Assembly (NCBI RefSeq): GCF_013167455.1
Contig: NZ_CP038328.1
DNA: 64,000 nt
Strand: one strand, 5' to 3'
Source of the DNA: Escherichia coli O157:H7
Lineage (GTDB): Bacteria > Pseudomonadota > Gammaproteobacteria > Enterobacterales > Enterobacteriaceae
Below, piece after piece: positions 1 through 2,480 of this stretch. A program made the position numbers and the translations under genes. The notes beneath the pieces were generated by a model. That model made no database searches. It worked only from the letters and a program-made list of their open reading frames with translations, and had not been told where the DNA came from. How positions within the stretch are numbered: position 1 is the first letter of the stretch; each line of letters opens with the position of its first letter.

Positions 1-231
1 CACCAGCACGACAAGATGCCGCATACTGCGCCCCAGTCGGTCCAGTTTCCAGACCACCAGCGTGTCACCTGCCGATAATGTCCTGAGCAGCTTTTTCAGT
101 CCTGGTCTGTCGGACTTTGTACCGCTTATCTTGTCTTCAAAAATCAGCTCACATCCTGCACACTCCAGCGCATTACGCTGTAATTCCGTATTCTGGTTAT
201 TTGTTGATACGCGGACATAGCCAATAAGCAT
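1..231 (-). CDS. Serine DNA invertase (Gin/Pin/Cin/Hin family), N-terminal 77 codons; gene continues beyond window start
   Basis: Reverse complement from ATG at 231-229 translates MLIGYVRVSTNNQNTELQRNALECAGCELIFEDKISGTKSDRPGLKKLLRTLSAGDTLVVWKLDRLGRSMRHLVVLV, the catalytic N-terminal domain signature of small serine invertases; open to the window edge; next to the invertible fibre segment. Confidence 0.85.
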   Translation of the reverse strand, partial: MLIGYVRVSTNNQNTELQRNALECAGCELIFEDKISGTKSDRPGLKKLLRTLSAGDTLVVWKLDRLGRSMRHLVVLV

Positions 232-286
232 GAGCATTCCCCTGAGTAAAAACCGGGGATGATGCCAGTTAGCCATAATCTCTGCA

Positions 287-312
287 TTTTCTTAAACGTT
301 GGTTTGGGAGAA
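287..312. repeat. Left inversion crossover site (26 bp, gix/hix-like)
   Basis: ttttcttaaacgttggtttgggagaa; inner 14 bp ttggtttgggagaa is the exact reverse complement of ttctcccaaaccaa at 2178-2191; central dinucleotide tt versus aa. Confidence 0.7.
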
Positions 313-672
313 GCGGCAAAACGGGATGTGGGGACAGGGGAAAATCAGATACCGGACATGGCCTCTTTTGCCAGTGGTGATGGATGGATGAAATTACCCA
401 ACGGGAAAATCCTGCAATATGGTCGTGGTGCGGTTACGCCGACATTATCGACGCAAACAATGAGAATTACATTCAGCATCCCTTTCTCCAAAAAAGCGGA
501 CTGCGCCATGCTTACTCATTCTGGTGATGGCGGTGCGCCTTTAGGCGCTGGGCGAGGGTTCGTGATGACTGCAGAAGGCCCAACGTTAACCGGCTTTAAT
601 TCTGCTTACAGAACGTCATCAACCAGCGACACGGTATCGATGAATTACAGTTGGTGGGCTGTTGGTGAGTAA
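300..672 (+). CDS. Alternative tail-fibre C-terminal variable segment, promoterless and without its N-terminal part in the current orientation
   Basis: ORF 259..672; frame runs through the crossover site (..FLNVGLGEAAK..) so inversion would fuse it in frame to the constant fibre N-terminus; fibre-tip-like Gly/Ser/Thr-rich sequence. Confidence 0.55.
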
Positions 673-683
673 TTTTATTCAGG

Positions 684-1136
684 GTGATTTATATGAATGA
701 ATATGTTTATAGCGCAAGGCATAATGCTTTTTTCCCTGTGGATATGATTGATAAATATAAATCAGAGGGATGGGATTTATCAGACGCTAAGGAAGTAAAT
801 CAAAATATTATCAGTGAGTTTATGGCTGAACCGCCACAAGGAAAAATCCGTATTGCCGGAGATGATGGGCTGCCTGCGTGGGCAGATATTCCTCCACCCA
901 CGCATGAAGAACTTATTGAAATTACTGAATCAGAAAGACAGCTACTAATTAACCAGGCCAACGAATACATGAACAGTAAACAATGGCCCGGTAAAGCCGC
1001 TATTGGTCGTCTGAAAGGTGAGGAACTGGCGCAATATAATTTGTGGCTGGATTATCTGGATGCACTGGAGCTGGTTGATACCTCCAGTGCGCCAGATATT
1101 GAATGGCCTACGCCTCCGGCAGTTCAGGCCAGATGA
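684..1136 (+). CDS. Tail-fibre assembly protein (chaperone for the alternative fibre)
   Basis: 150 aa ORF; recognisable tail-fibre assembly protein family sequence; directly downstream of the alternative fibre segment. Confidence 0.7.
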   Translation: MIYMNEYVYSARHNAFFPVDMIDKYKSEGWDLSDAKEVNQNIISEFMAEPPQGKIRIAGDDGLPAWADIPPPTHEELIEITESERQLLINQANEYMNSKQWPGKAAIGRLKGEELAQYNLWLDYLDALELVDTSSAPDIEWPTPPAVQAR

Positions 1137-1710
1137 CATCCGGCGCGGTGCTGGTATCTGTTGCCGTCACCGCGTCAATGTAATCCAGCACAGCGTTAAG
1201 TCTGGTTGTTTCTGCCTGCGTCGGTTTACGTCCGGCCTGCAATTTCAGTTGAATCAGACTGATGGAAGCCATTGCTGCATCAATCAGTGACTGGCGCTGT
1301 GCTTCTGCCGCTTCTACTGCGGCACCGTGTTGTGCCTCAGTATCTGTCACCCATTTTTCACCATCCCATTTATCGAATGGCGTTAACGGGGCGATAGTGG
1401 TTGTATTTTCAGGATAATCACCCGGAGCTGTGATTTCTTTGGCGTCTCCCGTTTCGGTGTTATAGACGATTTCACCGCGATGGTCTGGCACATATTCCCA
1501 TGAGTTTAAATCCATCGAACGGCAGATAGCATAACCCGCCTTATGTATACCAGGTTCATCCAGACAGGAATATGCAGGGATACCGACACCAATGGCAAGA
1601 TATTCATTTGAAGTAGAAATATATTCCCGAGTTTTACCATCATAGTTATAGACGGTAATATTCCCCGCCTTCGTGGCAATAAGCTCGCTATTTAATACGG
1701 CGTTATCCAT
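1108..1710 (-). CDS. Tail-fibre assembly protein (chaperone for the expressed fibre)
   Basis: 200 aa ORF immediately downstream of the fibre gene on the minus strand; tail-fibre assembly family sequence. Confidence 0.7.
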   Translation of the reverse strand: MDNAVLNSELIATKAGNITVYNYDGKTREYISTSNEYLAIGVGIPAYSCLDEPGIHKAGYAICRSMDLNSWEYVPDHRGEIVYNTETGDAKEITAPGDYPENTTTIAPLTPFDKWDGEKWVTDTEAQHGAAVEAAEAQRQSLIDAAMASISLIQLKLQAGRKPTQAETTRLNAVLDYIDAVTATDTSTAPDVIWPELPEA

Positions 1711-2480
1711 TATGCAGCCCTCACGATATAGTTAAATGCAATATTTCGTGGACGGGTTTCACTCCCGCCAGTATTACCGATACTCCCTCGTGAATGAAGT
1801 GTCGGTGATGGGATCAGACTCCCTCCTGTATTTGTGGCATCAAGTCCCCGTCCTTGTGTGTATGTCTTTTTGAAAATCGTAGCCAGTTCCCATTCATCTT
1901 TTGTGTCGTAACCATCATTGGCAACAACAATATGGCGGTGTTTTTCCAGCATCCCTGTCTGAATGCTCAATAAAACACGTCCTGCATCAATACCGCGCCC
2001 GTCATCCCAGCCACGAATAAACTCACCACGTAAATCAGGCAATTTATTTGTCGGATAAGCCTTTGCCAGTTCCGGGTATTCTTCAGCAGAAAAAGCCGCA
2101 CCGTTGCATTTCAGCCAGCCTGTTGGCGGTGTGGCTGAAGGCCATGGAACAGGCACACCAACAGGTAATGCAGAGCCTTCTCCCAAACCAAGGTTTTCGA
2201 GAGCCGTTTGCACAGTGCCATCCGATTTGATATCGCCAAACGGATTCTTGCGGCTTAACAGCAGCGCGCGAAGTGCGGTAAGTAACTGGTCGTGCCGCCC
2301 CTTCTCCAGGCTGGCACCGGATGCCTCCACCACGCTGCAAAGTTCCTCCTGCAACATGTCAAAGTAGTCATCATCCAGATCGGTGGCAGGCGTGCCGGTC
2401 TGGGGGTTACCACGGGTAAAACCGTTCTTACCCGCGCCGAACTTATCCTTCTGCGCGGTTTTCGTGTCTATACGATGCAT
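1710..2480 (-). CDS. Tail-fibre protein (constant N-terminal part plus variable C-terminal part)
   Basis: 256 aa; [17 protein letters not shown]... N-terminus typical of Mu/e14-type fibres; crossover site lies near codon 97. Confidence 0.8.
2178..2203. repeat. Right inversion crossover site (26 bp, gix/hix-like), inside the tail-fibre gene
   Basis: ttctcccaaaccaaggttttcgagag, imperfect dyad resembling hix/gix sites; inverted copy of the 287-312 site; encodes ...LENLGLGEG... in the fibre reading frame. Confidence 0.7.

Follow-up and report, generated by a model that had tools for sequence, protein, structure and literature searches.

The stretch analysed here is a window of 64,000 nucleotides (nt) from Escherichia coli O157:H7 (contig NZ_CP038328.1 of assembly GCF_013167455.1), and the element in question lies at its left edge, at the tail end of a prophage integrated at thrW. 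A tail-fibre gene, a second fibre tip parked on the opposite strand, an assembly chaperone gene for each tip and the start of a serine invertase gene (pin) are arranged there around two short sites in inverted orientation. The features are as follows, in window coordinates, with lengths in base pairs (bp) or amino acids (aa):

231..1 (minus strand): first 77 codons of pin, a Pin-type serine invertase gene, MLIGYVRVSTNNQ..., with catalytic Ser9
287-312: crossover site L, adjoining pin, TTTTCTTAAACG TT GGTTTGGGAGAA, central dinucleotide at 299-300
300-672 (plus strand), within the open reading frame (ORF) 259-672: parked fibre-tip cassette B, with a Gp53-like C-terminal domain (gp53-like domain protein in RefSeq)
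693..1136 (plus strand): TfaB, the cassette B assembly chaperone, 147 aa (phrog_188, tail fiber assembly protein, E = 2.8e-63)
1710..1108 (minus strand): TfaA, the cassette A assembly chaperone, 200 aa (phrog_105, E = 2.9e-97)
2480..1710 (minus strand): fibre gene in the state expressed here, an ORF of 256 aa (phrog_1858 and phrog_523, tail fibre)
2480..2191 and 2190..1710 (minus strand): constant part of the fibre and cassette A, respectively
2178-2203: crossover site R, within the fibre gene, TTCTCCCAAACC AA GGTTTTCGAGAG, central dinucleotide at 2190-2191
300-2190: invertible segment, 1891 bp between the site centres
2484..3068 (minus strand): YmfQ / Mu gp48-like baseplate wedge gene (phrog_203, E = 1.4e-83, and RefSeq annotation)

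The first-pass annotation of this DNA had placed two inverted 26-bp hix/gix-like sites with an exact 14-bp core at the positions of sites L and R. Both are present there, and the core is contained in an exact 15-nt stretch common to the two (299-313 / 2177-2191). The cores TT and AA are the same dinucleotide in inverted orientation, and each site consists of two imperfect 12-bp half-sites round this matching 2-bp core, which is the build of the class. A repeat finder returned the same pair as the top inverted repeat of the region (arms 294-313 and 2177-2196, 20 nt, one mismatch). The 14-mer has exactly two copies in the window, one per strand, against 0.03 expected from shuffled sequences. On a scoring profile built partly from sites L and R themselves, these two score 18.4 and 17.8 and the next candidate 13.4, so that no third crossover site comes near them in the segment or in the 64-kilobase (kb) window. 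Multiple-inversion systems such as p15B Min and the shufflons were ruled out on this count, there being only two high-scoring sites. Site L, Mu gixR and the pin-proximal site of the K-12 element e14 line up position by position, and site R agrees with 20/26 positions of what we take to be the hixL sequence.

Immediately ahead of the fibre gene, the late operon has the YmfQ gene, in a row of baseplate genes on the minus strand, and cassette B and the TfaB gene lie on the plus strand, convergent with the fibre and TfaA genes. Two convergent fibre C-terminal segments, each with its own chaperone, had been proposed from the sequence, and both chaperones do match tail-fibre assembly families. The proposed in-frame crossover at ..GLGE.. 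holds as well: it falls after fibre residue 101, and after a flip the fibre reads ..ENLGLGE|AAKRD... The predicted fibres are 256 aa in the window state and 220 aa in the flipped state, with the N-terminal 101 residues common to both, and the 220-aa fibre is annotated in a genome with the flipped orientation. Residues 1-101 match the N-termini of Mu-type fibre families. Tip A carries a Pfam Collar domain (PF07484) at aa 108-155 and resembles the T4 gp37 tip (2XGF, E = 1.5e-17) and short-tail-fibre structures, and the flipped fusion protein with tip B matches Pfam PF21882 (Gp53-like_C). The two tips are unrelated domains and each has its own chaperone, as a host-range switch would need. NCBIfam holds no model naming the fibre, chaperone or YmfQ proteins.

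The chaperone genes converge so that their 3' ends overlap by 29 nt (1108-1136). Both chaperones terminate in a similar motif, ..LDY(L/I)DA...TS(S/T)APD(I/V)..WP.., and this common C-terminal motif accounts for the inverted repeat at 1046-1063 / 1172-1189. On the plus strand, an ORF begins with an ATG at 259/262, outside the segment, and crosses site L in frame into the parked cassette. The TGGCAT(C/G)AT motif that supplies this ATG is conserved in e14 (comparison record 6606-6656) and in Mu, with divergent spacer around it.

Positions 300-2190 were flipped in silico within window 1-3100, and both forms were compared with 5,426 complete genomes of E. coli. Full-length matches to the flipped form (3100 nt) came from 33 complete genomes, and to bases 1-3100 in the window orientation from 29, in both cases at 99.7-100% identity. 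Among cattle isolates of one series (strains 113-150), whose chromosomes are of nearly equal length, orientation divides 10 to 13. In two of the cattle strains, 114 and 139, all flanking genes agree in protein accession and in coordinates, and strain 114 equals strain 139 over 43,100 nt once 300-2190 has been flipped. The breakpoints are thereby bounded to 298/299..313/314 and 2176/2177..2191/2192, intervals that include the central dinucleotides. The segment inverts, and its breakpoints are at the sites. The possibility of a frozen relic is ruled out by the occurrence of both orientations across genomes and by the 114/139 pair.

The window contains the invertase N-terminus at 1-231, as had been called, in the form of 77 codons on the minus strand (read further, the translation begins MLIGYVRVSTNNQNTELQRNALECAGCELIF...). 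The gene continues 324 nt past the left edge of the window, and it is cut by that edge and by no defect. The full pin gene is intact in genomes identical to the window, from which the sequence beyond residue 77 was taken, and encodes 184 aa. Pin is 95% identical to K-12 PinE and matches the Mu Gin structures (PDB 3UJ3) end to end over residues 1-181 (E = 1e-93). It has the domains of a small serine recombinase, a catalytic resolvase domain with the active-site serine (Pfam Resolvase, E = 1.1e-51) and a C-terminal helix-turn-helix (HTH_7, E = 1e-12); NCBIfam gave only distant recombinase models below cut-off. The same protein, WP_000905124.1, is encoded in genomes of both orientations. The first-pass annotation had named a single orientation together with a defective invertase as the finding that would tell against a switch; the orientations are instead divided between 29 and 33 genomes, and the invertase is intact.

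The sites, the in-frame fusions, the intact invertase and the two orientations in otherwise identical genomes demonstrate a segment that switches the fibre gene between two forms. We identify the locus, with a probability of about 0.88, as a prophage tail-fibre switch with two states that belongs to the Hin/Gin/Cin/Pin class and corresponds to the P segment of e14. It is a working, ordinary example of a known phage device, of a kind known since the 1980s. Catalysis probably falls to the adjacent Pin and not to a paralogue, in dependence on Fis, and the two tips presumably differ in receptor specificity, so that the two states would differ in host range.

For a Fis enhancer, which had been suggested as something to look for in the 5' region of the invertase gene, the candidates are:

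142-213, within the 5' part of pin: putative recombinational enhancer, homologous to the annotated P1 cin enhancer (cin nt 19-90)
195-209 and 147-161: candidate Fis sites, with centres 48 bp apart

Across this stretch pin, pinE, gin and cin align without gaps. Among the five aligned sequences on which conservation was counted, two blocks, GTATCAACAAAT(G/A)A and G(T/C)GCAGGATGTGA, vary little or not at all; third-codon positions are invariant at 6/10 within the blocks, 0/11 between them and 8/43 outside overall. The centre of the proximal block lies 97.5 bp from the centre of site L, and about 100 bp separate site and enhancer in the native Hin system (PMC3798978). The homology to the P1 enhancer is suggestive of a Fis enhancer in pin.

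The standard mechanism of the Hin/Gin/Cin/Pin class most likely applies. The minus-strand late operon would be read through the baseplate genes into the fibre gene, whose first 101 codons, outside the invertible segment, would encode the baseplate-attachment part. Pin dimers would bind both 26-bp sites, a Fis-bound enhancer in the 5' end of pin would assemble the synaptic complex, and cutting at the central AA/TT dinucleotide would be followed by rotation of the 1891-bp segment. In the window orientation the constant part is fused to the collar-type tip A, with TfaA directly downstream; in the other orientation it is fused to the Gp53-like tip B, followed by TfaB. A lysogen population would then release two kinds of virion that differ in receptor specificity.

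Several points weigh against this identification. The orientations were read from consensus assemblies and not from reads of a single culture. A consensus scan of the 3-kb locus gave no promoter for pin, the promoter-like sites being no commoner than in shuffled sequences. The degenerate Fis motif GNNYRNNWNNYRNNC is uninformative alone, with 24 matches at one mismatch or fewer in 636 nt and several pairs 44-52 bp apart; for that reason the enhancer was placed by positional homology to the annotated P1 enhancer instead, and it is on that homology that the suggested enhancer stands. Assembly of either fibre, inducibility of the prophage and a difference in receptor binding between the tips are predictions from sequence. 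Residue 12 of Pin is Asn (VSTNNQ), where all four other aligned invertases, including PinE, Gin and Cin, have Asp (VSTNDQ), and other invertases in the genome could flip the segment in trans.

The last two points bear on the first rival explanation, in which another Gin-family invertase, encoded elsewhere in the genome, does most of the flipping in trans and the adjacent Pin has only a small part in it. There is a precedent in K-12, where PinQ of another prophage inverted the e14 segment more strongly than PinE (PMC12529663). Several genomes have more than one place that matches the 3.1-kb query, and the D12N change in the adjacent Pin is unusual. D12N aside, however, Pin is close to PinE and Gin, the gene is intact, and WP_000905124.1 accompanies both orientations. 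We consider flipping mainly in trans unlikely, at roughly the level of an outside chance. The underlying base change, G to A at window 198 in pin codon 12, is also the sole change in an otherwise invariant block that coincides with the candidate proximal Fis site.

A second explanation accepts the inversion and gives it a different use. The segment would be a host-adopted, phase-variable anti-phage device, in which the parked cassette is not silent but is translated from the ATG at 259/262 as a free receptor-binding domain, gp53-like in the window orientation and collar-type in the flipped one. This free tip would coat a surface receptor and block the adsorption of other, unrelated phages. The flip of e14 has been claimed to create such a protein, StfE2, which is short, starts upstream of the pin-proximal site and ends in a gp53-like tip, and StfE2 produced from a plasmid lowered T2 adsorption (PMC12529663). 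The ORF from 259/262 is in frame across site L in both orientations (137 aa here, 172 aa flipped), e14 and Mu have a like ORF arrangement upstream of the site, and in the window orientation ORF 259-672 carries a gp53-like domain as does StfE2. Against this, the promoter and terminator scan of the 3-kb locus gave counts not above those of shuffled sequences and left ORF 259-672, like pin, with no assignable promoter, and its ribosome-binding context is poor. The TGGCAT(C/G)AT motif could instead belong to the invertase promoter on the other strand, and tip B and the e14 StfP tip have an estimated identity of only about 25-30%. Since the prophage looks complete, ordinary virion function suffices. 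We regard an anti-phage device as improbable, slightly more so than flipping in trans; if it were true, expression of the parked cassette would mean that the switch serves the host as well as the phage.

That the two orientations reflect assembly error or homologous recombination at short inverted repeats is very improbable: orientation was taken from assemblies, and inverted repeats are a classic trouble spot for assemblers, but the 62 finished genomes come from many studies and divide 29 to 33 by orientation, each breakpoint is confined to 15 nt in the middle of a 26-bp hix/gix-type site, an identity of 15 nt is far too short for RecA-dependent exchange, and an intact dedicated invertase lies 56 bp away.

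The value of the two-state fibre switch described here is mainly practical, and knowledge of DNA invertases is unchanged by it. The fibre gene is annotated as 256 or 220 aa depending on the state of the culture at sequencing. Where isolates from an outbreak or a herd are otherwise identical, a flip appears as a structural difference of 1.9 kb, which is not to be taken as divergence. The locus also shows e14 as it was before its deletions, and the module of invertase and cassettes appears to be mobile: it is found in P2-like phages as well, with homology ending at the crossover sites.

The prophage that carries the switch extends over about 38 kb. At one end an integrase gene adjoins tRNA-Thr (34695-34770); the other end is marked by a repeat of the tRNA 3' end, roughly 3.5 kb beyond the left edge of the window. 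Its genes cover an integrase, regulators, lysis functions and terminase, the head is HK97-type and the tail contractile and Mu-type. Pseudogenes are few, and the prophage is apparently complete, which makes a virion function of the switch plausible. Between pin and the attachment site, in the position of mcrA in e14, lie a gene for a LEM-3-like GIY-YIG nuclease, an AraC-family regulator and a fragment of an insertion sequence (IS). The iss gene (increased serum survival, a bor-like lipoprotein) is found at about 20085-20378 on the opposite strand, between the lysis and the HNH/terminase genes, with coordinates mapped onto the window from a matching genome. The duplicated thrW attachment site also holds a P4-like satellite, in tandem with the prophage (about -12000 to -3500 in window coordinates), whose genes encode an integrase, a polarity suppression protein, an ogr/Delta-like protein and a primase; it also has an ABC-three-component system and an AAA ATPase, which resemble defence cargo.

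Outside the prophage, decayed host genes are annotated in a matching genome over about 42665-50830: partial prfH and rtcB, a truncated lateral-flagellar flhA by lafU, rayT with an internal stop, and a frameshifted yafQ toxin gene adjoining an intact dinJ. In the region of about 59200-64000 the window diverges from the reference genome NZ_CP066748.1 at 60868, within an RHS core gene. A 378-aa ORF at 60964-62100 (minus strand) lies there, and genomes that match 60000-64000 annotate an ISAs1-family transposase and a split RHS protein in the same place. In this strain an IS appears to interrupt the RHS gene beside the type VI VgrG gene.

Among known systems the P segment of e14 in K-12 is closest. 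Its gene order is alike (ymfQ, the constant part of the fibre, a tip with its chaperone, a chaperone with its tip, pin), and the locus here has a PinE-like invertase, the e14 crossover sequences and an StfP-type constant part downstream of ymfQ, the marks of an e14-type P segment. The site inside the e14 fibre gene stfP is identical to site R, the pin-proximal site is one base off site L, and the 14-mer is identical at both. Residues 1-101 of StfP are identical to the constant part here (101/101), and the e14 DNA is 98.4% identical from jayE and the baseplate genes to window 2176, where the identity ends at the crossover site. Inside the segment the two elements diverge. TfaA is 88% identical to K-12 TfaE, TfaB is 54% identical to TfaP over the C-terminal part, StfE and tip A have the collar half in common and a different distal half (61% identity overall), and the StfP tip and tip B are distant (about 25-30% identity, estimated from the alignment). 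The e14 segment measures 1797 bp (PMC12529663) against 1891 bp here, and K-12 MG1655 parks the StfE-type cassette whose counterpart is expressed here. Inversion of e14 has been shown in culture (PMC4272514) and reported in 33% of 562 deposited genomes (PMC12529663).

The two prophages also differ in setting and in completeness: e14 is a deletion remnant at icd, whereas the prophage at thrW looks complete. Pieces of e14 map at 95.6-98.4% identity to 2176-3846, 16937-17995 and 28673-29830 of the window, and in the chimeric e14 gene ymfN (oweE/aaaE) window positions ~28673 and ~17995 meet at a junction. Thus e14 looks like a relative of this prophage minus about 10.7 kb (regulation, lysis) and about 13 kb (head, tail). 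A phage record with pin by mcrA and a truncated fibre gene (ON470584.1) was left unused, being a partial genome probably broken at the invertible segment.

The G segment of Mu is more distant. Pin is 78.5% identical to the Mu invertase (tblastn), and in both the invertase start and the crossover site upstream of it are equally far apart. Mu likewise has the constant part of the fibre outside the segment and the alternative C-terminal parts with their chaperones inside it. The baseplate genes here are Mu-like and the heads are unrelated, that of the present prophage being HK97-type. At about 3 kb the Mu segment is larger, and so is the Mu fibre, of about 500 aa against the 256 or 220 aa found here, where the constant part accounts for only 101 aa. 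The C segment of P1 and P7 follows a like logic of alternative fibre C-termini, and its invertase Cin is 83% identical to Pin. The 3' end of cin overlaps cixL in P1, which makes cin point into the segment, whereas site L is 5' of pin and pin is directed away from the segment. The P1 segment is also larger (4256 bp against 1891 bp).

In the H segment of Salmonella, Hin flips a promoter of flagellin genes, and the invertase gene lies inside the segment. The present locus differs in both respects, as coding cassettes are swapped and the invertase is outside. The Hin system has 26-bp sites, a 14-bp exact repeat and, within the 5' end of hin, a Fis enhancer (PMC3798978).

P2-like phages (such as KC618326, pro483 and Klebsiella KP12) carry the module of invertase, both cassettes and both chaperones at about 90% DNA identity over window 2-2202. 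The fibre to which it is attached there is a P2 H-type protein of 499 aa, and the baseplate is of the P2 kind. Homology to KC618326, KR073661 and CP115737 starts and stops at the crossover sites (294-296, 2191-2202), and this pattern of sequence identity suggests that the invertible module has been exchanged between unrelated tail types at those sites.

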